Virus record (IMG/VR): IMGVR_UViG_2574180019_000006
Reading direction: 5' to 3' (one strand)
Length of the DNA stretch: 64,000 nucleotides
DNA from: a virus
Lineage: Duplodnaviria > Heunggongvirae > Uroviricota > Caudoviricetes
Shown here: in pieces, positions 8,803 through 24,036 of the stretch
Position numbering within the stretch: the stretch's first letter is position 1
Layout: each line of letters begins with the position of its first letter
Translations under genes and position numbers: made by a program
Notes under the pieces: model-generated
Told to the model about the DNA's origin: nothing
Seen by the model: only the letters and a program-made list of their open reading frames with translations
Database searches by the model: none

Positions 8803-9945
8803 ATGTCATATTCAACGTTCCGTTTGGGTGCTAATGATGCAACCAAAGAGCCTATGTTCCTCGGACAATCTGTCAACGTGGCACGTTACGATCAGCAAAA
8901 ATACCGTGATTTTGAAAAGTTGATTGAACGTCAATTGTCTTTCTTCTGGCGGCCGGAAGAAGTTGATATTTCGAGCGATCGTATCGACTTCAACACGAAG
9001 CTGCGGGACCACGAACGTCACATTTTTCTGAGCAATCTCCGTTATCAAACGTTACTCGATTCAGTTCAGGGACGTAGTCCAAATGCAACGCTGCTGCCGC
9101 TTATCTCTATTCCTGAACTGGAAACGTGGGTTGAAACGTGGTCTTTCTCTGAGACTATCCATAGCCGCAGCTACACCCACATTATTCGTGGCATGGTGGA
9201 CGATCCGAGCATTGTTTTTGACGGTATTGTTACGGATGAAGAAATCATCAACCGAGCGATCAGTATCTCTGCTGAATATGACAGGCTTTATGGGATGACC
9301 TGCGAGCGCCAGTCGTTAGGTGAGAAGGAATTTGAGCGTCTGTACGTAAATGAATATGGCTGGGAGCCATACCCTTTGCATCGTCAGCTTTTCCGCACGT
9401 TGGTGTCCATTAATGCGCTTGAGGCGATCCGTTTCTACGTAAGTTTTGCATGTACGTTTGCCTTTGGTGAACGGAAGTTGCTTGAGGGTAACACCAAAAT
9501 TATGCGCTTTATTGCCCGTGATGAAGCTCTGCATTGCGAAGGAACTGAACGCATGATCCGCTTCATGCGTACCGGTCGCGAAGGTTTATTGTGGAAAGAG
9601 ATTGCTGCTGATGAAGAAAACGTCATTTACGACACCATGAAATCAGTCGCCGAACAAGAAATGAACTGGGCAGACTATCTCTTCAAAGACGGTTCGATGA
9701 TTGGTTTAAACGCGGATATTCTCAAAACCTATGTAAAATACCGCACCAATCTGGCTATGAATCGTCTTGGCCTGAAGGCTTTATTTCCAGAAGTTACCAC
9801 TGATCCGCTGGTCTGGATGAACAAGTGGTTGTTAACCGACACACTGCAAATTGCACCACAAGAGGCAGAGCAAAGCACATATCTGGTAGGTCAGATCGAT
9901 TCTACCGTGGATAAGGCTTCTCTAAGCCAGTTTGCAGACCTGTAA
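8803..9945 (+). CDS. nrdB: Ribonucleotide reductase class Ia small subunit
   Basis: 380 aa; near-colinear with E. coli NrdB as recalled ([83 protein letters not shown]). Confidence 0.9.
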
Positions 9946-10022
9946 ACCGATACAAAGCATTATGTGGCCTGGCAACGCTGGGCCACAATGGATCACAAGA
10001 ATTAAGAAGGAGCAAAACTAGC

Positions 10023-10892
10023 ATGAACTTTACCAAACTGACTGACCACCTGAAACTTGCCACCGATCGACTCATTGGATTTAAGCCAGAACCATATGAG
10101 TTGCATGAAGGCCATGGTGTAGCCACTGAAAGTATTTACAAGATGGTCGATCAGTTTCATGAACTCTTCCAGCATCCGAGACGCGTTATGCCGACACCAG
10201 AGCTGCTTCGTCTCCGTGCAAGCCTGATTCATGAAGAAGCTGTAGTGGAAGGTATTCCAGCCGCAATGAATGGGGATATTGAGCAACTGCTGGATGCAAT
10301 GGCCGACTTTTTATACGTTGGTGTTGGTACGATGGTCGCCATCAAAGGTGGTATTTCTACCGGCATGACTTATTACACGCAGGAACAGAGCATTGATCGC
10401 TTTATGCAGACAATTTTTGTGCCTGGTAACACTGTTTTCGATGATATGGCAATGCCATTTCAGGAAGCTCGTGAGGCGTCATGTATGCTCGAAGAGCTGG
10501 CAGATAAACTTGAGAAGAAGACTGTTAAGGATTCTGAGCTGATTCAGGAACTGCGCCGTGTAATGAACAAAATCTATGTGGCGTGCATGATGACTTATCG
10601 ACTGGCTGATTTTCTCGGTATCAATGTCGTCGAGCTGGTTGGCGAAATTCATCGGTCCAACATGACAAAATTATGGCCTGCAGATGCCGAAGAGCGTCGC
10701 CATGCTGTGGCCAACTGCAAATACGACTCTTCTGACCTGGGATTTCGCCATGCTGATGGCACCGATAAGATGATCGGTTTTCGAATTTCCGATGGAAAGA
10801 TTCTGAAGTCTCCAACCTATAGTGATGTCGATTTATCCTCCTTTGTTGAGCAAGCTAAAGCCTCAGCAATGTACGGAATGATCAAAAAATAA
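10023..10892 (+). CDS. putative all-alpha NTP pyrophosphohydrolase (MazG/dimeric-dUTPase-like)
   Basis: Segment IHEEAVVEGIPAAMNGDIEQLLDAMADFLYV fits MazG-type E-E-x2-E ... E-x2-D-x2-D-F-L pattern; nucleotide-metabolism neighbourhood. Confidence 0.4.
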   Translation: MNFTKLTDHLKLATDRLIGFKPEPYELHEGHGVATESIYKMVDQFHELFQHPRRVMPTPELLRLRASLIHEEAVVEGIPAAMNGDIEQLLDAMADFLYVGVGTMVAIKGGISTGMTYYTQEQSIDRFMQTIFVPGNTVFDDMAMPFQEAREASCMLEELADKLEKKTVKDSELIQELRRVMNKIYVACMMTYRLADFLGINVVELVGEIHRSNMTKLWPADAEERRHAVANCKYDSSDLGFRHADGTDKMIGFRISDGKILKSPTYSDVDLSSFVEQAKASAMYGMIKK

Positions 10893-11036: not shown

Positions 11037-12167
11037 GTGGTTACTTATCTTTGTGAGGTTTTTGTGTCACTCCTTTTGAATCGTGAGCATACGAACGGTC
11101 AGGTAACAAACGCATCGTATGCAAAAGTTATTGAGACGGTGCTTAAAAGCGGCGTGCAGGCTGATGATCGCACAGGCACTGGTACTTTAAGCACCTGTTA
11201 CGTTCCCTCTTACTACATGCTTACTGGTGGGACTGTGCCGCTTATTTCTGGAAAGGCGGTAAATCTTAAGCCACTGCTTGTCGAACTTGAGTGGTATCTG
11301 AAAGGCACGGGCAACATCCAATTTCTCAAGGATAACGGCGTTAAGATTTGGGATGCATGGGCCGATGAGAATGGCGATTTGGGGCCGGTTTACGGTAAGC
11401 AGTGGCGTCGATGGGAAGATACCCGCATCGTGAGCCATAGTGAATATCTGAGCAAGATCGCTACTTTCCGTGAACGCGGGTACAAAGTCGAGGGATACCT
11501 GGGTATCAGTGAAGATCGCGTAGTGCTGTCCCGTGAAATCGATCAGCTACAGCGTATTGTCGATACACTGCGCACGAACCCTACCGATCGTCGCATCATG
11601 CTTAACGCATGGAACGTAGGCGAGCTTGAGGATATGAAACTGCCACCTTGCCACTTTGTCTTCTCTTTGTGGAGTCGTGAACTGGATTTTGAAACCCGTT
11701 TAACGATGGCAACTGACATTGGTCTTCAACACAGTCGCCTCGGTTACGAGTCTATCTACACCAAGATGCTATACGATCTGGAGATGGACGGCAGTGTTAC
11801 TGAAACTGAACTGGATGAACTTGGAATCCCCAAACGCATCCTCAACTCCTGCCTCGTACAGCGTAGCGTAGACACTTTTGTTGGTATGCCATTCAATATT
11901 GCTGGCTATGGCATTCTCACTCATTTTCTCGCGAAGATTACGGGTCACATGGCCGGTGCATTTGTGCATTTTGGCTTTGACGTGCATTTGTACAACAACC
12001 ACATGGAAGGTGTGTGTGAGCTAATGCAACGACAGGCTCCAGAGCATTCAGATCCGGTCGTTATATTCCCTAATGAATGGTCTGAGCTGGATGATTTCAA
12101 ATGGGACGAGATTCTTATTCTTGGCTATGCCCCTCTACCGTGGATCAAGGTTCCAGTGGCGGTGTGA
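11037..12167 (+). CDS. thyA: Thymidylate synthase (ThyA-like) with two large insertions; true start probably GTG at 11064
   Basis: Conserved ThyA blocks DDRTGTGTLS, WADENGDLGPVYGKQWR, DRRIMLNAWNVGELEDMKLPPCHFVFSLW (catalytic Cys), VDTFVGMPFNIAGYGILTHF, HLYNNHME, GYAPLPWIKVPVAV; ~35-aa and ~60-aa inserts relative to E. coli ThyA. Confidence 0.8.
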   Translation: MVTYLCEVFVSLLLNREHTNGQVTNASYAKVIETVLKSGVQADDRTGTGTLSTCYVPSYYMLTGGTVPLISGKAVNLKPLLVELEWYLKGTGNIQFLKDNGVKIWDAWADENGDLGPVYGKQWRRWEDTRIVSHSEYLSKIATFRERGYKVEGYLGISEDRVVLSREIDQLQRIVDTLRTNPTDRRIMLNAWNVGELEDMKLPPCHFVFSLWSRELDFETRLTMATDIGLQHSRLGYESIYTKMLYDLEMDGSVTETELDELGIPKRILNSCLVQRSVDTFVGMPFNIAGYGILTHFLAKITGHMAGAFVHFGFDVHLYNNHMEGVCELMQRQAPEHSDPVVIFPNEWSELDDFKWDEILILGYAPLPWIKVPVAV

Positions 12168-14904: not shown

Positions 14905-15714
14905 ATGAGTTCGGTTGAAAATGTAATGACAAATGATGATCTGGACGAGCTGACAGCCATGTTGCAATCACTTGATGAACCAGTAAAAAAAGCTGCACAG
15001 GTTGAAAATACTGATGATATTGACGATCTGCTGCTCGGCCTAGATGCTGGCGTAGCCATGAGTTCTGATGATGTTGCCGAAGAACTGTTCAATGAAGAAA
15101 AAGCAGGTGATTTCAGCTCTGCTTTAAATGAGTTGGAGTTAGCGCATGAGCCTATAAACGTAATTAACGCTGAAAGTGTTGAAGCTGCCGAAAACGAGCC
15201 AGAACAATTGGGATTTATTGAGGTTGAAGAGTGTGTTGAGGTTAATGATGAATTAAAAGTTCAACAGTCAAATGATAGCAATACAAATAAAAAAGCTCGT
15301 ACTGCAAGAGGTCCTCGTTTTACTTTAAGTGATAAAGATGATTCGTTTTTCAATAAAGCGGGCTTAGAAAAAGATATTTTCTTAGACGCTTACGATAACG
15401 CGCCTGTCAAAGCAAAGGATAAGATATTAAACCTTCTTAATTGGTTTAGCGGAGGTCCAGATATTAGTGTTTACACGGTAATTTCCATGAGACACCTTCT
15501 CACAGAAAAGAAGGCTACAAGTAATAGTATTAAGATTGCTTTAATGAGCAATCCAGAAAAACCGTATCCGCTTAACACTGCGTCAACTCAGGCTGGGCAA
15601 ATGATGGCTGTATTTCCAGCGACAGGAATTGCCGTTAGAGACGGTGGAAATCTAACATTGAACGAAGAATCACCGATCGTTAAGAAGTTTGTCGCGGAGT
15701 ACACTATTGGATGA
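14905..15714 (+). CDS. hypothetical protein with strongly acidic N-terminal ~110 aa
   Basis: 269-aa ORF, RBS aaggag; N-terminus rich in D/E (DDLDELTAMLQSLDEP...ENTDDIDDLLLGLD). Confidence 0.5.
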   Translation: MSSVENVMTNDDLDELTAMLQSLDEPVKKAAQVENTDDIDDLLLGLDAGVAMSSDDVAEELFNEEKAGDFSSALNELELAHEPINVINAESVEAAENEPEQLGFIEVEECVEVNDELKVQQSNDSNTNKKARTARGPRFTLSDKDDSFFNKAGLEKDIFLDAYDNAPVKAKDKILNLLNWFSGGPDISVYTVISMRHLLTEKKATSNSIKIALMSNPEKPYPLNTASTQAGQMMAVFPATGIAVRDGGNLTLNEESPIVKKFVAEYTIG

Positions 15715-15866
15715 CGTTCCCCTACTTAAAATAAAGCCCATAGAGAGCTTTATAGTACTGGGTAAGCCAATCACATACCCAGCACCACAAAAACGCGCCA
15801 GAGAGCTTCTCGTTTGCATTTCTGGCGCGTTTTATTTGATTGCCAGACATAAAATCAAATGCAAAA

Positions 15867-15886
15867 ATAGGTATATACTTACCTAT
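15867..15886. promoter_or_regulatory. Intergenic palindrome ataggtatatacttacctat
   Basis: Near-perfect palindrome of recurrent family, 10 nt upstream of MTase start. Confidence 0.35.
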
Positions 15887-15897
15887 CGAGAAAGAAG

Positions 15898-16491
15898 ATG
15901 ATTGCAGCCGAAAAAATCAAACAGCGAAAGCGCGACAACTCTCTTCGTGACCTCTGGAGAACACCTGACTGGCTGTTTTCTGCCATTCAACGTTATCTTG
16001 GAGTGACATTTGATGTTGACGTTGCCTGCAACAAGGACAATGCAAAGCTGCCTAATTTCATAGGCGTTGAGCGTGATGCTTTGAAATCTGAATGGGGACA
16101 GCCAGGTACAATTGCCTTCCTCAATCCACCCTACTCCAAAATCTACCCCTGGATTGATGCGGCTATACGTGAGCAGGCTCGCGGAGTTACAACAGTGATG
16201 CTAATTCCTCAATCCCTAGATACAAAGTGGTATGAGCGTGCAACAGAGTGTGCGAATGAGACGATTATTCTGTCTGGTGGCCGCGTAGCGTTTGTCGAGC
16301 CTGACGTAAATCTGGGTCAGGTAGAAGTAAACATCAACCCAGGTGGCAGTATGCTCGTTGTTTTTCGAGGATTCTGTCAGGACGCTGGGCACTCTATAAG
16401 CAAGATCCCTTTGGACGTCATGAAAAGTCTGGGAGGGTATGATCCTGCGAATGTGATCAGGAAAAAAAGACCATCAAAGAAGGCTGCTTAG
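15898..16491 (+). CDS. DNA N6-adenine methyltransferase (phage Dam-like family)
   Basis: 197 aa; WRTPDWLF N-terminal motif and catalytic FLNPPYS typical of phage N6-adenine MTases. Confidence 0.8.
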   Translation: MIAAEKIKQRKRDNSLRDLWRTPDWLFSAIQRYLGVTFDVDVACNKDNAKLPNFIGVERDALKSEWGQPGTIAFLNPPYSKIYPWIDAAIREQARGVTTVMLIPQSLDTKWYERATECANETIILSGGRVAFVEPDVNLGQVEVNINPGGSMLVVFRGFCQDAGHSISKIPLDVMKSLGGYDPANVIRKKRPSKKAA

Positions 16492-16520
16492 TTTGTTCTG
16501 GCGTCTGTAATTAGCCTGCT

Positions 16521-16565
16521 TCTGTATATATAAATAACTACATATTAATTATTAATATACGGAAG
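16521..16565. repeat. AT-rich palindromic element, copy 1 of 2 (ctgtatatataaata...ttaatatacggaag)
   Basis: ~55-bp element with conserved flanks duplicated at 47571-47625. Confidence 0.5.
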
Positions 16566-16676
16566 AAGGCTGTTTTGTATCAGAGACTCCAGACCTGAAC
16601 ATCACTACAGAATCCACTAGAGCCCCTTCCCAGACGCTTTAAAATCGATTTTATAAACCACTTTAAGGAAACCAAC

Positions 16677-16907
16677 ATGTCATACCCGACTAATGTCGTT
16701 GCGCTCGTAGAGAGCGATTTTCTGGCCCAGGCTCGTGAAATGATGAAAGATCGTGAGCAGGCTTTCAACTTGTACGAATGGGCAATTAAGTGCTTGCATC
16801 TTGGCGAGCATCGCGAACTTGTTGAACAGCTTTTAGGTGAGTTGATCAATGAGGTGTTTGCCTTGAATGTTCAACTACATGGTAGAGAAAATAATCAATC
16901 ACAATGA
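16677..16907 (+). CDS. hypothetical small protein (76 aa)
   Basis: ORF with RBS aaggaa 6 nt upstream of ATG. Confidence 0.4.
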   Translation: MSYPTNVVALVESDFLAQAREMMKDREQAFNLYEWAIKCLHLGEHRELVEQLLGELINEVFALNVQLHGRENNQSQ

Positions 16908-17487
16908 TAGATAAGTACAAACTATTCATAAAGTGAATTGTAAGTGCTAAGATCTGATAGTTTCCAGTCGTAGACTGGAGACTCGACCTGATGGGTGGGG
17001 GTAAGCGTCACTGGCGTCAGGTTTAAAAAAGCTCACTACCAGCGTAGAACTGGTGCCGTTTAGGTGTCGGGGAAGGGGGAACCAAAGTGAGCAGAGACAA
17101 GGGTCACTTTATGATTGTCGAGTCTGGGGTGTTTCGAGAGGTTGAATCCAGTACTCCCCTTCATAAAGTGTGGGAAGATCTCGGTTCTGGGGTGCTGTCA
17201 TCCATAACTTCCCAAGTCTAAGCTGGCAGTAGACTTAGACCATAACTTTTCAGGTTATGAAACGACCAGGTTGGTGAGAGATTTATACTCACCTCCCTGG
17301 GAGAGTATTACCTGAAAAGACAACCTCTCACTTCGTTCGAGGTGAACTTCACTCACTTCGTTCGTTCAGTTCAGGTTTATAAAAACCTGTTCTGGGAAGT
17401 AATTTGTTTATTTTAATAATTATTAACACGCACGCGTGTGCGCACGCGCGAGGAAAAATCGGCGCGGCGCTTGATTCAGGAGTTTAT

Positions 17488-18078
17488 ATGACGACGAAGA
17501 CACCAGCCCGATCGCAAGCAAAAACTCGCAAAAAAGCCAAAAACAAAAATTCTCCCCGCACCAATCCCACAACGCCTGTCGTAGAGTTCAATCCCCAGCT
17601 TAAAACCGTGAAAATCTTCAGTGATGGCTCTTGCCTTAAAAATCCGGGTGGCCCGGGCGGTTACGGTATCGTTCTTCAGTATCGTGGAGAGGAACGCGAG
17701 TTCTCAGATGGTTTTCATAGCACCACCAATAACCGCATGGAGATGATGGGGGCACTTATCGGGCTGGAGCGTTTGAAATATCCATGCAACGTTATTTTGC
17801 ACTCTGATAGCCAGTATCTGAAAAACGGCATGACACAGTGGATGAAATGGTGGAAACGCAATGGATGGATGACTTCTGACAAAAAACCGGTAAAGAATGT
17901 TGATCTGTGGAAGCGTCTGGATGAGGCCGCAAGTCGACATAATGTTCGCTGGAAGTGGGTTAAAGGTCACGCCGGGCATCGTGAAAATGAAATATGTGAT
18001 CGACTCGCGAAGATCGCAGCTTTTTCAGCAGCAGATATGCCTCACAAGAAAGATATTGGTTTTGTTTATAACAAATAG
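17488..18078 (+). CDS. rnhA: Ribonuclease HI with N-terminal basic extension
   Basis: Core [84 protein letters not shown] colinear with E. coli RnhA; ~40-aa Lys/Arg/Thr-rich leader; RBS aggag before ATG 17488. Confidence 0.85.
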
Positions 18079-18226
18079 TAAGTAAGTGTTTACCTATCAT
18101 TTTAAATCATGTATCTTATCGGCGTCAGGATGACAATGTGTCGGTAAGACACAGTTCCAGGATGGAACGAGAAAGGCGGCTGGCAATCGCCAGCCGCAAC
18201 TCTTTCTGACACTGGATGGAGTCCAC

Positions 18227-18721
18227 ATGGCACGTCAAACCTATTTCACTTCTGTAACTAAACGTCCTCGTTCTTTACGTCAAATTTTGGCCGAATTATT
18301 TAGCGGTCGTGTTATGTCACGCCTTGATGAACTAGAGACTACCGTTCGGTTGCTGAATGAACGTTTAGATAATCAAGCGTCAGTTGTTGCGAACGTGGGG
18401 GCGATTGTTGCCTCTGGTTCTTCACGCGAAGCGAAAAATGCACGGCCTTTAGTGAAGGAGAAAAACAACAAGGACAGTTCGAATGGAAAATTTTCAAAGA
18501 AAGAGGCTGAAACCAATGGCCTACGTTCTCATTATAGTTTCACTGGCGACGGTAGCCGTTCCAGCCGGTCAGAGCCTTTTGATGCCGGATTCATCCACCA
18601 CCACACCTTCGTCGACGACAATTACCACCACTCCAGTGGAGCGTCCTGTCACTCTGGATGGGATGGCGGTGGATGCGATACCTCAAGTTCATCCAGTTAC
18701 TCAGGATCATGCTGTGACTAA
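18227..18721 (+). CDS. hypothetical protein; 3' half overlaps next ORF in another frame (extent uncertain)
   Basis: RBS ggatggag upstream; N-terminal half coiled-coil-like, C-terminal half low-complexity G/S/C-rich. Confidence 0.3.
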   Translation: MARQTYFTSVTKRPRSLRQILAELFSGRVMSRLDELETTVRLLNERLDNQASVVANVGAIVASGSSREAKNARPLVKEKNNKDSSNGKFSKKEAETNGLRSHYSFTGDGSRSSRSEPFDAGFIHHHTFVDDNYHHSSGASCHSGWDGGGCDTSSSSSYSGSCCD

Positions 18722-18734
18722 GGCGGTTGTATGA
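18516..18734 (+). CDS. putative secreted/membrane-anchored Thr/Pro-rich protein
   Basis: RBS aagagg 9 nt upstream of ATG 18516; N-terminal signal-like MAYVLIIVSLATVAVPAGQ then TTTPSSTTITTTP linker. Confidence 0.4.
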   Translation: MAYVLIIVSLATVAVPAGQSLLMPDSSTTTPSSTTITTTPVERPVTLDGMAVDAIPQVHPVTQDHAVTKAVV

Positions 18735-18919
18735 ACTGGTTTTCAAATCACTTTGGAAAAATTTGGCTGGCAATTCTTGCCCTCATGGCCGCCGGTTGGG
18801 TATCGAACATTATAAAACTTGTTTGCTCTGGCGATCTCCAGTTTCAGGCTGGCATGACCTTAGCTCGTGTAGTTGGGATTTTTATTTTTCCAGTCGGTTC
18901 GGTACTTGGTTATTTCTGA
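18731..18919 (+). CDS. small membrane protein (62 aa, two predicted TM segments)
   Basis: ATG overlaps upstream stop (ATGA); hydrophobic stretches IWLAILALMAAGWV and VVGIFIFPVGSVLGYF. Confidence 0.4.
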   Translation: MNWFSNHFGKIWLAILALMAAGWVSNIIKLVCSGDLQFQAGMTLARVVGIFIFPVGSVLGYF

Positions 18920-18973
18920 CGGTTGTTAGTGCATATGCATTGACCGTCTTTGCGCAAGCAATTTATTTAACTA

Positions 18974-18990
18974 GAAAACAACTTGTTTTG
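18974..18990. promoter_or_regulatory. Palindrome gaaaacaacttgttttg upstream of TerB-like gene
   Basis: AAACAA-N-TTGTTT family, ~25 nt upstream of ATG followed by aaaaggaaaacacATG. Confidence 0.4.
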
Positions 18991-19012
18991 ACAAATAACA
19001 AAAGGAAAACAC

Positions 19013-19438
19013 ATGTTAGGTTTCTTCAAAAAGAAAACTCGTAAAGCTGTTATCGAAGTCAAAAAAATGGAGAACCGTGATGCGGTTGAGGCCACCGTGT
19101 GGGGCGCGTACATGATCTCCTATGCCGACGGCACATGTGACGCAAAAGAAATTGCCATTCTTGAGAAGACAATTGCAGCTCTGCCTGCGTTTTCTCCGTT
19201 TGCTGGTGAAATTGCCCAAATGAGCGCCAATATCCGTGCTCGTTACGAAGCGTCCCCTCGTTCTGCTAATGCACAGGCTATTCGTGAGCTGTCTGATATT
19301 GCGGGGACTCCAGAGGCGGTCGATGTTTTGTGTCTGTGCCTTGATATTGCCGATCAGGACGGCATTGGTGAACAAGAAGAGCAGGCACTGAAAAAGATCG
19401 CCCAGGCGCTTCAGTTGTCACTGGATGCTTATCTCTAA
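19013..19438 (+). CDS. putative TerB-like domain protein
   Basis: 141 aa; two acidic Asp/Glu-rich helical repeats (YADGTCDAKEIAILEK; DQDGIGEQEEQALKK) resembling TerB/DjlA-N fold; assignment tentative. Confidence 0.35.
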   Translation: MLGFFKKKTRKAVIEVKKMENRDAVEATVWGAYMISYADGTCDAKEIAILEKTIAALPAFSPFAGEIAQMSANIRARYEASPRSANAQAIRELSDIAGTPEAVDVLCLCLDIADQDGIGEQEEQALKKIAQALQLSLDAYL

Positions 19439-19596
19439 TGCTTGAGAGATTCCGGCTTGTGATCGTCATTGCTCTTCTGGTGATGGCGGTTTTGGTGGAT
19501 TTTACGGGAAAGATGATGTCTGTCATTTCTGATGGCGTCCTCATTGGTTTGGCGATCTACTTCGCTTATCCGTTAGTTCGTAAAGCAAAGTGTTAA
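19438..19596 (+). CDS. small hydrophobic membrane peptide (52 aa)
   Basis: Not in ORF track (<60 aa); ATG overlaps upstream stop (TAATG); sequence MLERFRLVIVIALLVMAVLVDF...; followed by terminator. Confidence 0.35.
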   Translation: MLERFRLVIVIALLVMAVLVDFTGKMMSVISDGVLIGLAIYFAYPLVRKAKC

Positions 19597-19599
19597 TGA

Positions 19600-19626
19600 C
19601 AAGGGCCAAATGGCCCTTGTGTTTCG
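19600..19626 (+). terminator. Rho-independent terminator
   Basis: caagggccaaatggcccttg hairpin followed by tgtttcg. Confidence 0.5.
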
Positions 19627-19702
19627 TTGACCGAAATAGAGAGTTTGCACCTTTACGTTTAGCTTGCTCCCCTTTTATGCCACATCACAATAAAGCCAAT
19701 AA

Positions 19703-19720
19703 GAAAACAACTTGTTTAAG
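19703..19720. promoter_or_regulatory. Palindrome gaaaacaacttgtttaag
   Basis: AAACAA-N-TTGTTT family upstream of ORF 19736. Confidence 0.4.
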
Positions 19721-19735
19721 CATTAGGAAAAACAC

Positions 19736-20302
19736 ATGTGCAAGAAATGCAAAGCGATAGCTGATGAACAAAACGCCTTATTCGAAGAAATGGATGCTAA
19801 TGAACTGGTCAAAATGTTAGCCATTCTTCGAGGAATAGAAGACGTTTCCATATTTGAGAGACTGTTTACAATACTTAATTTTAATTCCACCTTTGAAGAG
19901 CCAACTCAGATTGTAGCTTTGGCACACCATTTCGGTGTTCATTACCTTGCTGAAAAAGAGAGAGCTGATAAGTTGCAAGCGACTTTGGATATGGTGAGCG
20001 AGACTCAAGAAACTGATGACGGTAACAAAAGTGAGACGATTATTGCCAGCAAAGATCGTGAAATTGCCGGGCTTAAATCCTCTCTAACGATGTTGATGTC
20101 TGCAATCAACCTTATGTCTTCTAAAGCAGGTTCTAAAATGCCATCACTAAACAGCGACGATCCGATGGCCGTTCGCCAGCTTTTAGGTGCAATGGCCGAC
20201 CAGCTCGACGACACAAAGAGTCGCCTTGAAGACATGATGCGGGAGCTCACGCATCGCCATGACTTGAATAAGCAGCCGCACAAAACGCAATACGCACTCT
20301 AA
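19736..20302 (+). CDS. hypothetical protein (188 aa)
   Basis: ORF preceded by conserved ggaaaaacacATG leader. Confidence 0.45.
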   Translation: MCKKCKAIADEQNALFEEMDANELVKMLAILRGIEDVSIFERLFTILNFNSTFEEPTQIVALAHHFGVHYLAEKERADKLQATLDMVSETQETDDGNKSETIIASKDREIAGLKSSLTMLMSAINLMSSKAGSKMPSLNSDDPMAVRQLLGAMADQLDDTKSRLEDMMRELTHRHDLNKQPHKTQYAL

Positions 20303-20319
20303 TACAGCACCAGTCGACA

Positions 20320-20343
20320 GGGGGCGACAGCCCCCATTTTTAC
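20320..20343 (+). terminator. Rho-independent terminator
   Basis: gggggcgacagccccc hairpin followed by attttta. Confidence 0.5.
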
Positions 20344-20443
20344 GCCTTAAATCTGCTGTAACGCCTATGAATGCAGCTTTTATGCCTTTTCAAGTTTGCG
20401 ATAATTACACCAATCAGAAAACAAATTATTTAATGGTGTAATT

Positions 20444-22129
20444 ATGAATACAGCCCTTTCCATCATCGACGATGCCAGCTCAAACACGGCTATCGACTAT
20501 CGTCAGGAAATGAATGTCATCCACGAAATCGTGGCCGAGTGCGAGAAAGAGATCGCCTTCATGTATCAGGTACACGACTTCGTTTATGGCGACGAACGCC
20601 ACAACATGATTAATCGCCTGCTGAGACTAAACCATCGACCAGATGAAGATCGCTCGCGTTTAAATCGAGGTTGGTTGGATAAAGTCGATCTGGAATGGGT
20701 GAAACAGAATATTTGGGCCGAGTACTGGAGGAAGGTCACGGACATGACTAACGTTTTGCTGATCATGCCAGCTTCCCGTCGAGATGAGTGGCGCGAGCAG
20801 TTTATAGAGGGCAAACAGGAAGTCATCAAAACTGACAGAACCGGCTACCAGATGAAGGTTAAAGAGTTCGTTGGTGTACCGGAGTTCAAAGCAGAAACGG
20901 TCATACCCACGATGCTTAATTTGCTGAATGACAGGCACAAATATCTCTCTGAGCGCGTGTATGGCTTGTTTAAGGCGCTGAGTCCTGCGCACAAGACAAA
21001 TAAGACAAACGGTTTCAGCGAGCGGCTGATAATCGCTGACTGCATTTCTGATTTCTGGCGGGACAGCGTTAGCGTGAACTATCGCAAAGAGGACTACATC
21101 GACGATCTGCGTGTCTTGCTTCATTTCTTCGCGCACAAAGAATTTATTACCATCAACCGCACTGCTGAGGTGCTATCAGCTGCGTATCGGGCAAACGACT
21201 GCCAGACCGGTGACTGGATGAACGTCGATGGAAATCTGATGCGCGTGAAGATGTTCAAGAACGGCAACGTTCACTTTGAAATACATCCTGACGTGGCCTG
21301 GAAGTTGAATGAGGTGCTGGCTTACAGTATGCCTGCTGCAATCCCCGCGCCATGTCGCACCGCGCCAAAAACACGGGCACCAAAGCAGTTCGGGTTAATC
21401 CAGAAGACGATCTCCGTGCCGGTTCGCACTGCGCTTCGTGACGGGCGATTGAGCAAAGACAAAGGCGTATGGTACTTCTCTGATTCAGCTCTCCAGAAGT
21501 CGCAGGTGGAAGAGCTTGAGCGCACACTGAGCTTCATTGGCGGCGTGCAGGAGAAAAAACACTGGCAGTTCCCGTATGACATCGTCCATACGCTAAATAC
21601 GATTGTGGCTACCGGATTAATACCGGATACAAAATCACACCAGTTCTACCCTACCCCACGCTTGATTGCTGAGTACGTTGCCAGAGCCACTGAATTGAAG
21701 CCTGGTGAGAAGCTGCTGGAGCCTCAAGCCGGACGTGGGGATCTTCTGGCCTATATTAACGCCGATCTGGAAGATGTTACCTGCATAGAAATCGCACCTC
21801 TCTTCGCTGATATCCTGCGTGGAAAAGGGTATACGAACACGATTTGCTGCGACTTCATAAAGTGGTCTGAGGACAACGCAGGTTATCAGTTCGACAAAAT
21901 CGTTATGAACCCGCCGTACTCGCTTGGTCGTCATAGAGAGCACACTCTGGCTGCGCTTGGGCATCTGAAAGTCGGCGGGCGTCTTGTAGCAGTATTGCCG
22001 GGCACTGCGCCAATACTGGACTGGATGACGATGGATAATTACGTTTATGCCAGAGGGAAGTCGTTTACCAACGAGTTTGAAGACACAGGGATCACAGTCA
22101 GCGTATACGTTTTCAAACGCGTTAAATGA
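20444..22129 (+). CDS. two-domain protein with C-terminal N6-adenine DNA methyltransferase domain
   Basis: 561 aa; C-terminal AdoMet motif I LEPQAGRGDL and catalytic motif IV VMNPPYS; N-terminal ~380 aa of unknown function. Confidence 0.6.
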   Translation: MNTALSIIDDASSNTAIDYRQEMNVIHEIVAECEKEIAFMYQVHDFVYGDERHNMINRLLRLNHRPDEDRSRLNRGWLDKVDLEWVKQNIWAEYWRKVTDMTNVLLIMPASRRDEWREQFIEGKQEVIKTDRTGYQMKVKEFVGVPEFKAETVIPTMLNLLNDRHKYLSERVYGLFKALSPAHKTNKTNGFSERLIIADCISDFWRDSVSVNYRKEDYIDDLRVLLHFFAHKEFITINRTAEVLSAAYRANDCQTGDWMNVDGNLMRVKMFKNGNVHFEIHPDVAWKLNEVLAYSMPAAIPAPCRTAPKTRAPKQFGLIQKTISVPVRTALRDGRLSKDKGVWYFSDSALQKSQVEELERTLSFIGGVQEKKHWQFPYDIVHTLNTIVATGLIPDTKSHQFYPTPRLIAEYVARATELKPGEKLLEPQAGRGDLLAYINADLEDVTCIEIAPLFADILRGKGYTNTICCDFIKWSEDNAGYQFDKIVMNPPYSLGRHREHTLAALGHLKVGGRLVAVLPGTAPILDWMTMDNYVYARGKSFTNEFEDTGITVSVYVFKRVK

Positions 22130-23394: not shown

Positions 23395-24036
23395 ATGTCT
23401 AGTATTTCCGAAGCTCATATGTTCGCCGCTGGCGCTCATGGTGGCGTTGGTCAGAAAAGAAAATATACCGGCGAAGACTACATCAACCACCCGGTTGCGG
23501 TCCGAGAGATTGTTGCATTGCATGACGGAACCGTGGAGATGCAAATCGCGGCGCTTCTGCATGATGTGGTCGAAGACACCCATGTAACCATAGAGATGGT
23601 TCGTGATCACTTCGGTGAGCGCGTAGCTGAAATGGTTCAGGCTCTGACCAACATTGCAAGGCCAGAAGACGGCAATCGAATACAGCGTTTCATCATCAAT
23701 GTCCGGGAGCTGGAGCAAAATCTCGACATGCAGACGCGCATGATCAAGCTGGCTGACCTGCTCGACAATACCTCTTCTATCGTGAGTCGCGATCCCGAGT
23801 TTTCAGCTGTCTACCTCGCAGAGAAAGAACTGATGCTGGACGTACTCTTTCACGGCAAAGAGATTGGTGCCAACGCTGATGTTGTCGAGTACATGGAGAG
23901 GATAGGTATAGAACACCCGTTGCTATTAAGCGCAATGGCGAAAGTCACTGAAGGTATTGCGCTTCTGAAACCGGTACACATCAAACGTTATGAAAAACAC
24001 AAATCGCTGATCTGGAGCGCGTGGGAGGCTGCATGA
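23395..24036 (+). CDS. HD-domain phosphohydrolase, RelA/SpoT-hydrolase-like (putative small alarmone hydrolase)
   Basis: HPVAVREIVALHDG ... AALLHDVVEDT matches the RelA/SpoT HD (p)ppGpp-hydrolase signature; 213 aa, no synthetase domain; RBS acggag. Confidence 0.6.
   Translation: MSSISEAHMFAAGAHGGVGQKRKYTGEDYINHPVAVREIVALHDGTVEMQIAALLHDVVEDTHVTIEMVRDHFGERVAEMVQALTNIARPEDGNRIQRFIINVRELEQNLDMQTRMIKLADLLDNTSSIVSRDPEFSAVYLAEKELMLDVLFHGKEIGANADVVEYMERIGIEHPLLLSAMAKVTEGIALLKPVHIKRYEKHKSLIWSAWEAA

Follow-up and report, generated by a model that had tools for sequence, protein, structure and literature searches.

The window, that is the whole stretch of 64,000 nucleotides analysed here, belongs to an E. 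coli SSU5-like phage-plasmid with 97-98% identity to Cyrano/pLF82. Genes for RepA, SbcCD, RuvC, ribonucleotide reductase, thymidylate synthase, DHFR and a 3'-5' exonuclease are followed, in this order, by the interval 14905-22129, which is part of the rightward DNA-metabolism/early block of this SSU5-type phage-plasmid. The gene order of the interval is likewise annotated in phages Cyrano, SSU5 and pJN2-26 and full-length homologues are numerous for each of the three ORFs on which the earlier note had focused, so that these represent real genes rather than chance ORFs. All three lie on the plus strand where they had been placed, and all are kept in every SSU5-like relative inspected, from Escherichia to Morganella. 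The features of the interval are:

14905..15714, plus strand: 269-aa protein with an acidic tail and a winged-helix domain
15898..16491, plus strand: phage Dam-family N6-adenine DNA methyltransferase, 197 aa (PF05869, TIGR01712, NPPY)
~16960..17400, plus strand: unannotated structured non-coding RNA of ~440 nt, between the two methylase genes
17485..18078, plus strand: RNase HI gene (PF00075, E=1e-44; start as in the Cyrano annotation), directly 3' of the structured RNA
20320..20335, plus strand: terminator-like hairpin ending the gene 5' of the 561-aa gene
20397..20405, plus strand: putative TG-extended -10 promoter element, TGcGATAAT, for the 561-aa gene, inferred by sequence inspection
20444..22129, plus strand: DUF4942-methyltransferase, 561 aa (PF13708, motif I, NPPY)

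The product of 15898-16491 had been taken for a compact Dam-family methyltransferase, and it indeed scores above the curated cut-offs of Pfam PF05869 Dam (131.6 bits, cut-off 28.1; model positions 5-160 of 169) and of NCBIfam TIGR01712, phage N6-adenine methyltransferase (113.2 bits, cut-off 97.05), with the catalytic NPPY at residues 76-79. It shares 86% identity with SSU5_088, has homologues in 1,969 of 50,697 phage records and is matched in PADLOC by 'orphan methyltransferase' models; no nuclease gene adjoins it. Like the phage Dam family represented by M.EcoVT2Dam and T1 Dam, the protein is small, solitary and phage-borne with an N-terminal NPPY, and judged by its sequence it is a routine phage Dam-family methylase. 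Stx-phage Dam proteins match it at ~39% identity over 73% of its length, and M.EcoVT2Dam presumably belongs to the same family as these matches. By analogy, the small enzyme is most likely specific for GATC, although at ~39% identity to the Stx-phage enzyme this specificity is an assumption. M.EcoVT2Dam, an Stx-prophage Dam, has been reported to target GATC (PMC6602927).

The gene of the 561-aa protein is preceded by signals that recur in relatives: a G+C-rich hairpin is found at the same place in SSU5, where a T run follows it, and in Klebsiella pJN2-26, and the position of the putative -10 element is conserved as well (TGgGAAAAT in SSU5, TGaGATAAT in Klebsiella). The proposed C-terminal NPPY methyltransferase is borne out, as the AdoMet-binding motif I (LEPQAGRG, residues 425-432) is followed by motif IV NPPY (residues 489-492) in a Rossmann fold, both within the last ~165 residues; family hallmarks of N6-adenine methyltransferases are thus present in the 197-aa as well as in the 561-aa protein. 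The latter consists of variable N-terminal helices (aa 20-90), a conserved DUF4942 core (aa 91-300, nt 20714-21343), a small and variable alpha/beta domain (aa 325-395) and a minimal seven-strand Rossmann N6-adenine methylase domain (aa 396-561, nt 21629-22126). Its N-terminal domain had been considered unknown. This no longer applies to residues 140-295, which match PF13708 DUF4942 with 74.4 bits (cut-off 25), a domain present in 26 of 26 aligned homologues, and holds for the rest of the ~395-residue N-terminal part, in which DUF4942 was the only family matched. The catalytic domain itself stays below the cut-off of 20.4 bits of Pfam PF02384 N6_Mtase (13.6 bits for the full protein, 18.2 bits for the C-terminal fragment), and 23 of the 26 homologues match this model only at E<=1.

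In M.TaqI, a gamma-class enzyme of solved structure, the recognition domain comes after the catalytic domain, and a C-terminal recognition domain is likewise found in M.BseCI, CamA and the Type I HsdM proteins. The 561-aa protein lacks such a domain, since nothing follows its catalytic domain: the last Rossmann strand spans residues 551-559 of 561 and all extra sequence is N-terminal. It differs from the gamma-class enzymes further in the ~395-residue part that precedes the catalytic domain and in its score below the N6_Mtase cut-off. As the catalytic domain is minimal, TaqI-like and located at the C-terminus, the holding and reading of DNA must come from the N-terminal part.

The layout had been regarded as non-standard, a view we have to reverse, as DUF4942 joined to a C-terminal methylase domain is the fixed arrangement of a large family. 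Used on its own as the query, the N-terminal part retrieved 613 clusters at 50% identity; among the matches listed, 128 of 149 clusters are 480-620 aa long and 126 of the 129 clusters of at least 480 aa carry (N/D)PP(Y/F/W). Homologues occur in 2,546 PLSDB plasmids, 1,360 of which are conjugative, and at 278 loci among species-representative genomes, and are common on phage-plasmids, IncHI2 plasmids and lambdoid prophages. In the early regions of lambdoid prophages they adjoin N6_N4 and C5 DNA methylases, and on conjugative IncHI2 plasmids the homologue lies 1.7 kb from a Dam-type (PF02086) methylase. None of the loci inspected in these prophage and IncHI2 contexts has an adjacent nuclease, and in the window the flanking genes tested, the ORFs neighbouring the two methylases, gave no match to a nuclease or a defence model, so neither methylase has beside it the cognate endonuclease of a Type II R-M system. 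Mobile elements are well known to carry solitary methylases, and the want of a nuclease partner for either enzyme fits this habit. An experimentally characterised DUF4942-methyltransferase was not found in the literature searched.

What, then, would a phage-plasmid gain from two such enzymes? In the lysogen of Cyrano, a 97.5% identical phage and not the window element itself, the Dam gene has a log2(fpkm+5) of 2.3-2.8 and the 561-aa gene one of 2.8-3.1, on a scale whose zero lies at 2.32; in macrophages, the 561-aa gene has climbed to 5.6-6.0 after 6 h (PMC9928086, S1 Table). Read from this near-identical element, both methylase genes are essentially off in the plasmid-prophage state. M.EcoGII, a non-specific enzyme from what we take to be a methylase family different from the DUF4942 enzymes, resembles them in being prophage- or plasmid-borne, without a nuclease partner and not expressed in the lysogen. 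It thus offers a precedent of a prophage methylase that is silent in lysogeny (PMC5778455). We suggest that the two solitary N6-adenine methyltransferases would be expressed in lytic, or stress-induced, development and would methylate the replicating phage DNA before packaging, such that on entry into the next host it would already be shielded from restriction systems sharing the target sequences. Such protection would add to a passive one, as the element avoids 6-bp palindromes (AAGCTT, 1 observed against 20.8 expected in the window; GCATGC, 0 against 11.3; GAATTC, 1 against 9.2). Taken together, we favour as the probable reading that the DNA-metabolism block of this SSU5-type phage-plasmid encodes solitary methylases that protect lytic DNA, together with a 269-aa DNA-binding protein that is not a DNA mimic.

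The methylases may instead serve the life cycle of the element itself by marking sites through which packaging, the initiation of replication or gene expression is controlled, much as Dam methylation acts on the pac site and the origin of P1. GATC methylation is redundant in Dam+ enterobacterial hosts and would afford little protection there, which weakens a purely protective role of the small Dam enzyme; furthermore, variable anti-defence cargo is usually not conserved across all relatives, so that the retention of all three genes throughout the SSU5-like relatives, among genes for replication and nucleotide metabolism, makes a housekeeping role possible. However, within the window, which leaves ~40% of the element outside, GATC sites show neither avoidance nor clustering (no more than 4 per 200 bp, compatible with chance), and homologues of the 561-aa protein reside on unrelated backbones, often beside further methylases. 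As these backbones, which are IncHI2 plasmids and lambdoid prophages, have neither a replication nor a packaging system in common, a general protective role fits better, and we consider a life-cycle function unlikely. Less likely still is that the 561-aa protein methylates host rRNA or tRNA or a protein amide and thereby reprograms the host. Enzymes of the PrmC/HemK type likewise use NPPY as their catalytic motif, but the nearest relatives at the sequence level are the DNA adenine methylases M.TaqI, 7vru and EcoR124 HsdM, the PADLOC matches are DNA methylase models, a related catalytic domain is shared by a DarB-like protein and by phage proteins carrying a DNA methylase annotation, and the genomic neighbours are repeatedly DNA methylases. 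The best of the PADLOC matches, mad2 of MADS (E=1.5e-15, catalytic domain), raises the question whether the enzyme is the modification half of a defence system of the plasmid-prophage (R-M, MADS-like or similar), and a plasmid-borne R-M system has indeed been inferred for a Klebsiella SSU5-like plasmid (PMC8969562). This we regard as very improbable, given the flanking genes devoid of nuclease or other defence-model matches, neighbours that vary between backbones and a gene that is silent in the lysogen, a state that would kill in the presence of a working R-M system.

The earlier note had further proposed an anti-restriction toolkit in which the two methylases are joined by a DNA mimic, the acidic N-terminus of the 269-aa protein, that would block restriction enzymes. 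The acidity as such is confirmed: the first 110 residues contain 31 D+E against 3 K+R (net -28, 28% acidic), it is retained in most homologues despite sequence drift, and the gene lies directly 5' of the Dam gene in all relatives inspected. Yet dense acidic residues are the sole likeness to Ocr and ArdA, the known mimics, which are rigid, compact folds with a fixed spacing of charges and without a DNA-binding domain. In the 269-aa protein, by contrast, the acidic part (residues 1-~135) varies between 102 and 186 residues among homologues and is largely disordered in the structural model (pLDDT 51-79 per 10-residue block for residues 11-80, below 50 for 84-133), hence no compact, confidently folded acidic domain of conserved geometry was found. 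Fused to this part is a conserved DNA-binding domain (residues ~140-269) of the winged-helix type, with a helix-turn-helix and a beta-hairpin wing, and residues 126-269 are basic (pI 9.3), the opposite of a decoy. Searches of Pfam, NCBIfam and PADLOC gave no family match, and hence none to an Ocr, ArdA or other anti-restriction model therein; only PHROG families of unknown function were matched. A mimic of the Ocr/ArdA type is therefore unsupported and we think it highly unlikely. On the basis of the model, the protein is predicted to be a sequence- or structure-specific DNA-binding protein rather than a stand-alone DNA mimic, the disordered acidic tail of which probably recruits a partner protein or folds onto its own basic DNA-binding surface. 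The toolkit notion is accordingly upheld only in part: the solitary methylases remain, whereas the mimic lacks support, the methylases are near-silent in the lysogen and the three genes lie scattered over a DNA-metabolism block with unrelated genes (RNase HI, TerB-like and others) between them.

Solitary methylases that protect lytic DNA do not account for one feature of the 561-aa protein. The DUF4942 core is conserved to the same degree as the catalytic domain, which is unusual for a recognition domain, and it contains the invariant polar residues H183, T185, N186, D221, R223, D262 and H277. Instead of serving in recognition, the core might form a second active site, a weaker reading than the one that we propose for the structured RNA.

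This RNA, at ~16960-17400, is preceded by a conserved TG-extended -10 element (16945-16953) and followed by a U-rich stretch after 17400. Its identity among relatives peaks at 0.93-0.96, as compared to 0.65-0.80 in the flanking genes. The model comprises 15 predicted helices; RNAalifold on the alignment yields 127 pairs, with 99.9% of cells pairing, and double compensatory changes at 7 pairs, a number reached in 0 of 500 shuffles and opposed by 0-1 in slid controls. The MFE z-score is -4.5. In Rfam 15 (4,227 families) no match was obtained at gathering scores in the whole window and none at E<=1 in 16850-17450, and the element contains no tRNA or tmRNA. CYRAN_81, an ORF annotated over it, is interrupted by a stop codon in the Klebsiella copies. 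In lysogeny, the RNA-seq value of the element is ~117 against ~8-10 for both neighbours, that is ~12-fold higher. The element is present in 232 of 5,426 complete E. coli genomes, and in the examined stretches of the Xenorhabdus and Morganella phage-plasmids both the RNA and the RNase HI gene were undetected. Like GOLLD, ROOL and ColE1 RNA II, it is a multi-helical RNA of several hundred nucleotides that belongs to a mobile element and is transcribed independently; it differs from the known large RNAs in having no Rfam match, in a replication role that is putative and in a RepA gene ~17 kb away. ColE1 RNA II is a plasmid RNA processed by RNase H, and the element lies directly 5' of the RNase HI gene. 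It may well, at about even chances, represent an undescribed class of large structured non-coding RNA, made in lysogeny, so far confined to SSU5-type phage-plasmids of Enterobacteriaceae and acting in the control or replication of the element. Possibly it works with the downstream RNase HI, as an R-loop or primer RNA, or as a regulator of immunity or copy number.

SSU5-type phage-plasmids, which are found in ~4% of complete E. coli genomes, thus encode a pair of solitary adenine methylases whose genes stay off in lysogeny, a finding of modest import in itself. As the genes are almost silent in this state, methylomes of lysogens miss both enzymes and could be falsely negative. The DUF4942-methyltransferases, which abound on plasmids, phage-plasmids and prophages, are an uncharacterised family for which a motif assignment would be worthwhile; since IncHI2 resistance plasmids often carry a member, the motif has a bearing on the way in which these plasmids overcome restriction barriers. 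Of greater importance than the methylases could be the unannotated RNA. To our knowledge, there are few large, highly constrained bacterial RNAs of unknown function, and this one is expressed, plasmid-borne and therefore easily deleted, and carried by clinically common elements.

The interval from 14905 to 22129 is 98.4% identical to Escherichia phage CMS-2020a and 97.5% to Cyrano, which as a plasmid prophage of E. coli LF82 is called pLF82; identity falls to 82% with Salmonella phage SSU5 and to about 78-81% with Klebsiella phage-plasmids. The window and its annotated relatives, among them Cyrano, SSU5 and the Klebsiella element pJN2-26, share the same gene order. The features discussed here, including those of two compared loci, are as follows.

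14905-15714 (+), gene of a 269-aa protein with an acidic N-terminal part
14905-15150, conserved motifs of its acidic tail (residues 10-80)
15898-16491 (+), gene of a 197-aa Dam-family methylase
16945-16953 (+), putative promoter element of the RNA (TG-extended -10), from positional conservation
16960-17400 (+), putative structured RNA of about 440 nt, unannotated, from conservation, pairing and expression
20302-20444, site at which two genes of Cyrano (positions 9460-10358 of its locus L001) are missing, from comparison of the window with Cyrano
20444-22129 (+), gene of a 561-aa DUF4942-methylase
23395-24036 (+), gene of an HD-domain protein, 1.3 kb past the interval
L011 6351-10635 (locus of the IncHI2 plasmid pSal-5364) and L006 7655-11638, pair of a DUF4942-methylase and a Dam-type methylase

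In Cyrano the interval sits within a single long rightward block, in which it is preceded by genes for RepA, SbcCD, RuvC, ribonucleotide reductase, MazG, thymidylate synthase, polynucleotide kinase, DHFR and a 3'-5' exonuclease and its genes are followed by Ead/Ea22-like genes. The thymidylate synthase ORF of the window (11037-12167, +) contains an LPPCH motif, which we take to be typical of ThyA-type enzymes; the name ThyX that the gene bears in the Cyrano record is possibly an annotation slip. The window lacks CYRAN_88 (93 aa) and CYRAN_89 (201 aa), neither of which has a Pfam match and which in Cyrano lie directly 5' of the large methylase gene, and in SSU5 an anti-repressor gene nearby replaces the TerB-like pair. 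The stretch 5' of the large methylase is thus a variable spot.

The most conserved DNA of the region is the 500-nt gap that separates the RNase HI gene from a 76-aa ORF. Across ~17100-17400 the window shares 0.93-0.96 identity with its Klebsiella and Salmonella relatives, as compared to 0.71-0.78 in the flanking Dam gene and 0.65-0.82 in the RNase HI gene. The RNAalifold consensus of 27 sequences has 127 predicted pairs, which form 15 helices, and pairing is kept in 99.9% of 3,175 cells. Compensatory double changes occur at seven pairs in three helices (40 cells), which was reached by none of 500 shuffles, while structures slid by 1-3 columns gave 0-1; since most of the RNA is invariant, this covariation support comes from the 5' helices and one 3' hairpin. 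Many invariant G-U pairs, as well as switches from G-U to A-U or G-C, are valid on the plus strand only, and the single-sequence fold has an energy of -165 kcal/mol (z = -4.5). Just 5' of the RNA a TG-extended -10 element (TAAGAT, TAAAAT or TAGAAT), a putative promoter, is conserved in position whereas its surroundings are not. CYRAN_81, a 44-aa ORF that the Cyrano annotation places here, was rejected as a real gene because the Klebsiella copies, otherwise near-identical in sequence, carry an in-frame stop.

In Cyrano grown in LB the RNA site reaches about 117 (fpkm+5) as opposed to 8-10 for both neighbours, a difference of about 12-fold, and after 6 h in macrophages it reaches about 1,300. 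The RNA is present, unannotated, in 687 PLSDB plasmids, nearly all of which are ~105-115 kb in size and non-mobilisable, in 67 IMG/VR contigs and in 232 of 5,426 complete E. coli genomes. It matches no Rfam family by gathering scores or at E<=1, no tRNA or tmRNA was found at the locus, and we found no study of non-coding RNA of SSU5 in the literature. As judged from conservation and pairing, 16960-17400 is a putative structured non-coding RNA with approximate ends, unannotated and outside the families of Rfam. Antisense targets elsewhere in the window were considered and dismissed, the longest complementarity being 12 nt and thus at chance level. In the Xenorhabdus and Morganella phage-plasmid stretches examined, nhmmer and sensitive blastn detected no divergent copies of the RNA, and the RNase HI gene likewise went undetected there; this joint absence gives a weak hint that the two may be functionally linked. 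The spacer that leads from the RNA to the RNase HI start codon contains a G+C-rich alternating palindrome, CACGCACGCGTGTGCGCACGCGCG (17425-17455), which is also found in Cyrano and pJN2-26.

The three open reading frames that the earlier note had described are all present in the window, and its call of a Dam-family methyltransferase at 15898-16491 is borne out: with 131.6 bits for PF05869 and 113.2 bits for TIGR01712 (cut-off 97.05), the 197-aa protein clearly belongs to the phage Dam family, and PADLOC groups the protein with orphan methylases. A homologue is present in 1,969 of 50,697 phage records, including those of Stx phages (39% identity) as well as T1-like and jumbo phages, and the Dam gene of the window is an ordinary, routine phage Dam. 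For M.EcoVT2Dam, the Dam of an Stx prophage, GATC has been reported as the target (PMC6602927), so that GATC is likely the target of the 197-aa enzyme as well, provided that both belong to the same family, as we assume. GATC occurs 279 times in the window and is mildly under-represented (observed/expected 0.86); a search of the window for P1-like GATC clusters found none.

The 561-aa protein contains motif I and, as the earlier note had seen, NPPY close to its C-terminus, together with DUF4942 at residues 140-295. Modelling with 26 homologues gave a confident structure (pLDDT 82, pTM 0.71). When compared with all PDB sequences, the family profile matched M.TaqI best (E=5e-4); next came further adenine DNA methylases and EcoR124 HsdM, and the N-terminal 395 residues had no match. 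The catalytic residues are invariant or nearly so among homologues. The DUF4942 core (residues 91-300; nt 20714-21343) equals the catalytic domain in conservation when 129 cluster representatives are compared, with 39 versus 24 columns that are at least 90% conserved, and its invariant polar residues are T102, R164, H183, T185, N186, D221, R223, D262, H277 and N289; the H183-N186 loop is the sole low-confidence stretch within the modelled core. In the same set, residues 20-90 and a small alpha/beta domain at 325-395 are variable, and since they vary while the core is conserved like the catalytic domain, they would be better candidates for sequence recognition than the core, which presumably has some conserved role of its own. 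D262 together with E279-x-H281 was considered as a PD-(D/E)xK nuclease site of the core but rejected, as E279 is replaced by Q or R in several homologues.

The large methylase gene has its own putative terminator on the 5' side and a positionally conserved TG-extended -10 element as putative promoter. The inverted repeat ATTACACCA...TGGTGTAAT, which would form a hairpin at the start codon, resembled a translational switch, with a single compensatory change distinguishing Cyrano from the window. This reading was dropped: the arms pair imperfectly in SSU5 and not at all in Klebsiella, and the left arm also overlaps the likely transcription start.

The earlier note had called the architecture of this enzyme non-standard. 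Within its family, however, the layout is the usual one: the N-terminal 380 residues alone as query matched 613 clusters among 1.84 billion cluster representatives, and among the clusters listed 128 of 149 are 480-620 aa long and 126 of the 129 with at least 480 aa carry (N/D)PP(Y/F/W) downstream. The family is found on 2,546 of 72,556 plasmids (1,360 conjugative) and at 278 loci among species-representative genomes of Alpha-, Beta- and Gammaproteobacteria. Homologues in a Variovorax prophage and an enterobacterial prophage lie in the early right operon, adjoining N6_N4 and C5 DNA methylases. On IncHI2 conjugative plasmids a 31%-identical DUF4942-methylase is located 1.7 kb from a Dam-type (PF02086) methylase, and the pairing of a Dam-like with a DUF4942 methylase thus recurs on an unrelated backbone. 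No nuclease gene adjoins the DUF4942-methylase in the inspected prophage or IncHI2 loci. A related catalytic domain also occurs within very large phage proteins and a protein annotated as DarB-like. In the literature we found no functional study of DUF4942 proteins or of the SSU5/pHCM2 methylases, and DUF4942 is mentioned there in passing in gene tables only. The 561-aa enzyme is ordinary in kind and belongs to a family of methylases on mobile elements that is very common but uncharacterised.

In the Cyrano lysogen grown in LB, the Dam gene has log2(fpkm+5) values of 2.82 and 2.32 and the 561-aa gene has values of 3.11 and 2.82, with a floor of 2.32; 6 h in macrophages bring the latter gene up to 5.6-6.0 (PMC9928086, S1 Table). 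Both genes lie under the element median of about 10, as back-calculated from the 12-fold figure published for CYRAN_81. This silence in the lysogen argues against a resident restriction-modification or defence role and is shared with M.EcoGII, a prophage methylase without expression in its host (PMC5778455).

The first 110 residues of the 269-aa protein are indeed very acidic (31 acidic versus 3 basic residues), but the suggestion that they mimic DNA finds no support. The family has 55 matches, mostly on contigs of ~100-120 kb typical of SSU5-like elements. Among homologues the acidic part differs in length (102-186 residues) and its sequence drifts, its net charge stays negative (-4 to -28), and two short acidic amphipathic motifs are conserved; its model is of low confidence, with residues 84-133 modelled as disordered. 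Such features are typical of DNA-binding proteins that carry an acidic tail, unlike Ocr or ArdA, and we read the 269-aa protein as DNA-binding and not as a mimic. DDLDELTAMLQSLDEP, IDDLLxGLD and GDxxxxxxELE, the sole conserved pieces of the tail, look like docking motifs for a partner protein.

How much then remains of the anti-restriction toolkit that the earlier note had proposed? The two solitary methylases and the strong avoidance of 6-bp palindromes suggest that the element is under restriction pressure. Observed versus expected counts in the window are 1 versus 20.8 for AAGCTT, 3 versus 18.7 for GAGCTC, 3 versus 18.2 for AGCGCT, 1 versus 14.6 for GGCGCC, 0 versus 11.3 for GCATGC, 4 versus 15.9 for CTGCAG and 1 versus 9.2 for GAATTC; CTAG is also low (31 versus 80), whereas GATC, unlike many 6-bp palindromes, is not avoided. 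A dedicated module, on the other hand, is argued against by the interspersion of the interval genes with RNase HI, a TerB-like gene and others, and by their conservation in every SSU5-like relative inspected, which sets them apart from variable cargo. The HD-domain protein just beyond the interval (PF13328) is 87% identical to SSU5_099, which we take to be the small alarmone hydrolase PaSpo of SSU5, and its gene would likely be a counter-defence gene. PaSpo neutralises toxSAS toxins (PMC7229694).

Taken together, the observation of the earlier note is confirmed and its interpretation is supported in part. It is the structured RNA between the methylase genes that most deserves to be pursued in this interval.
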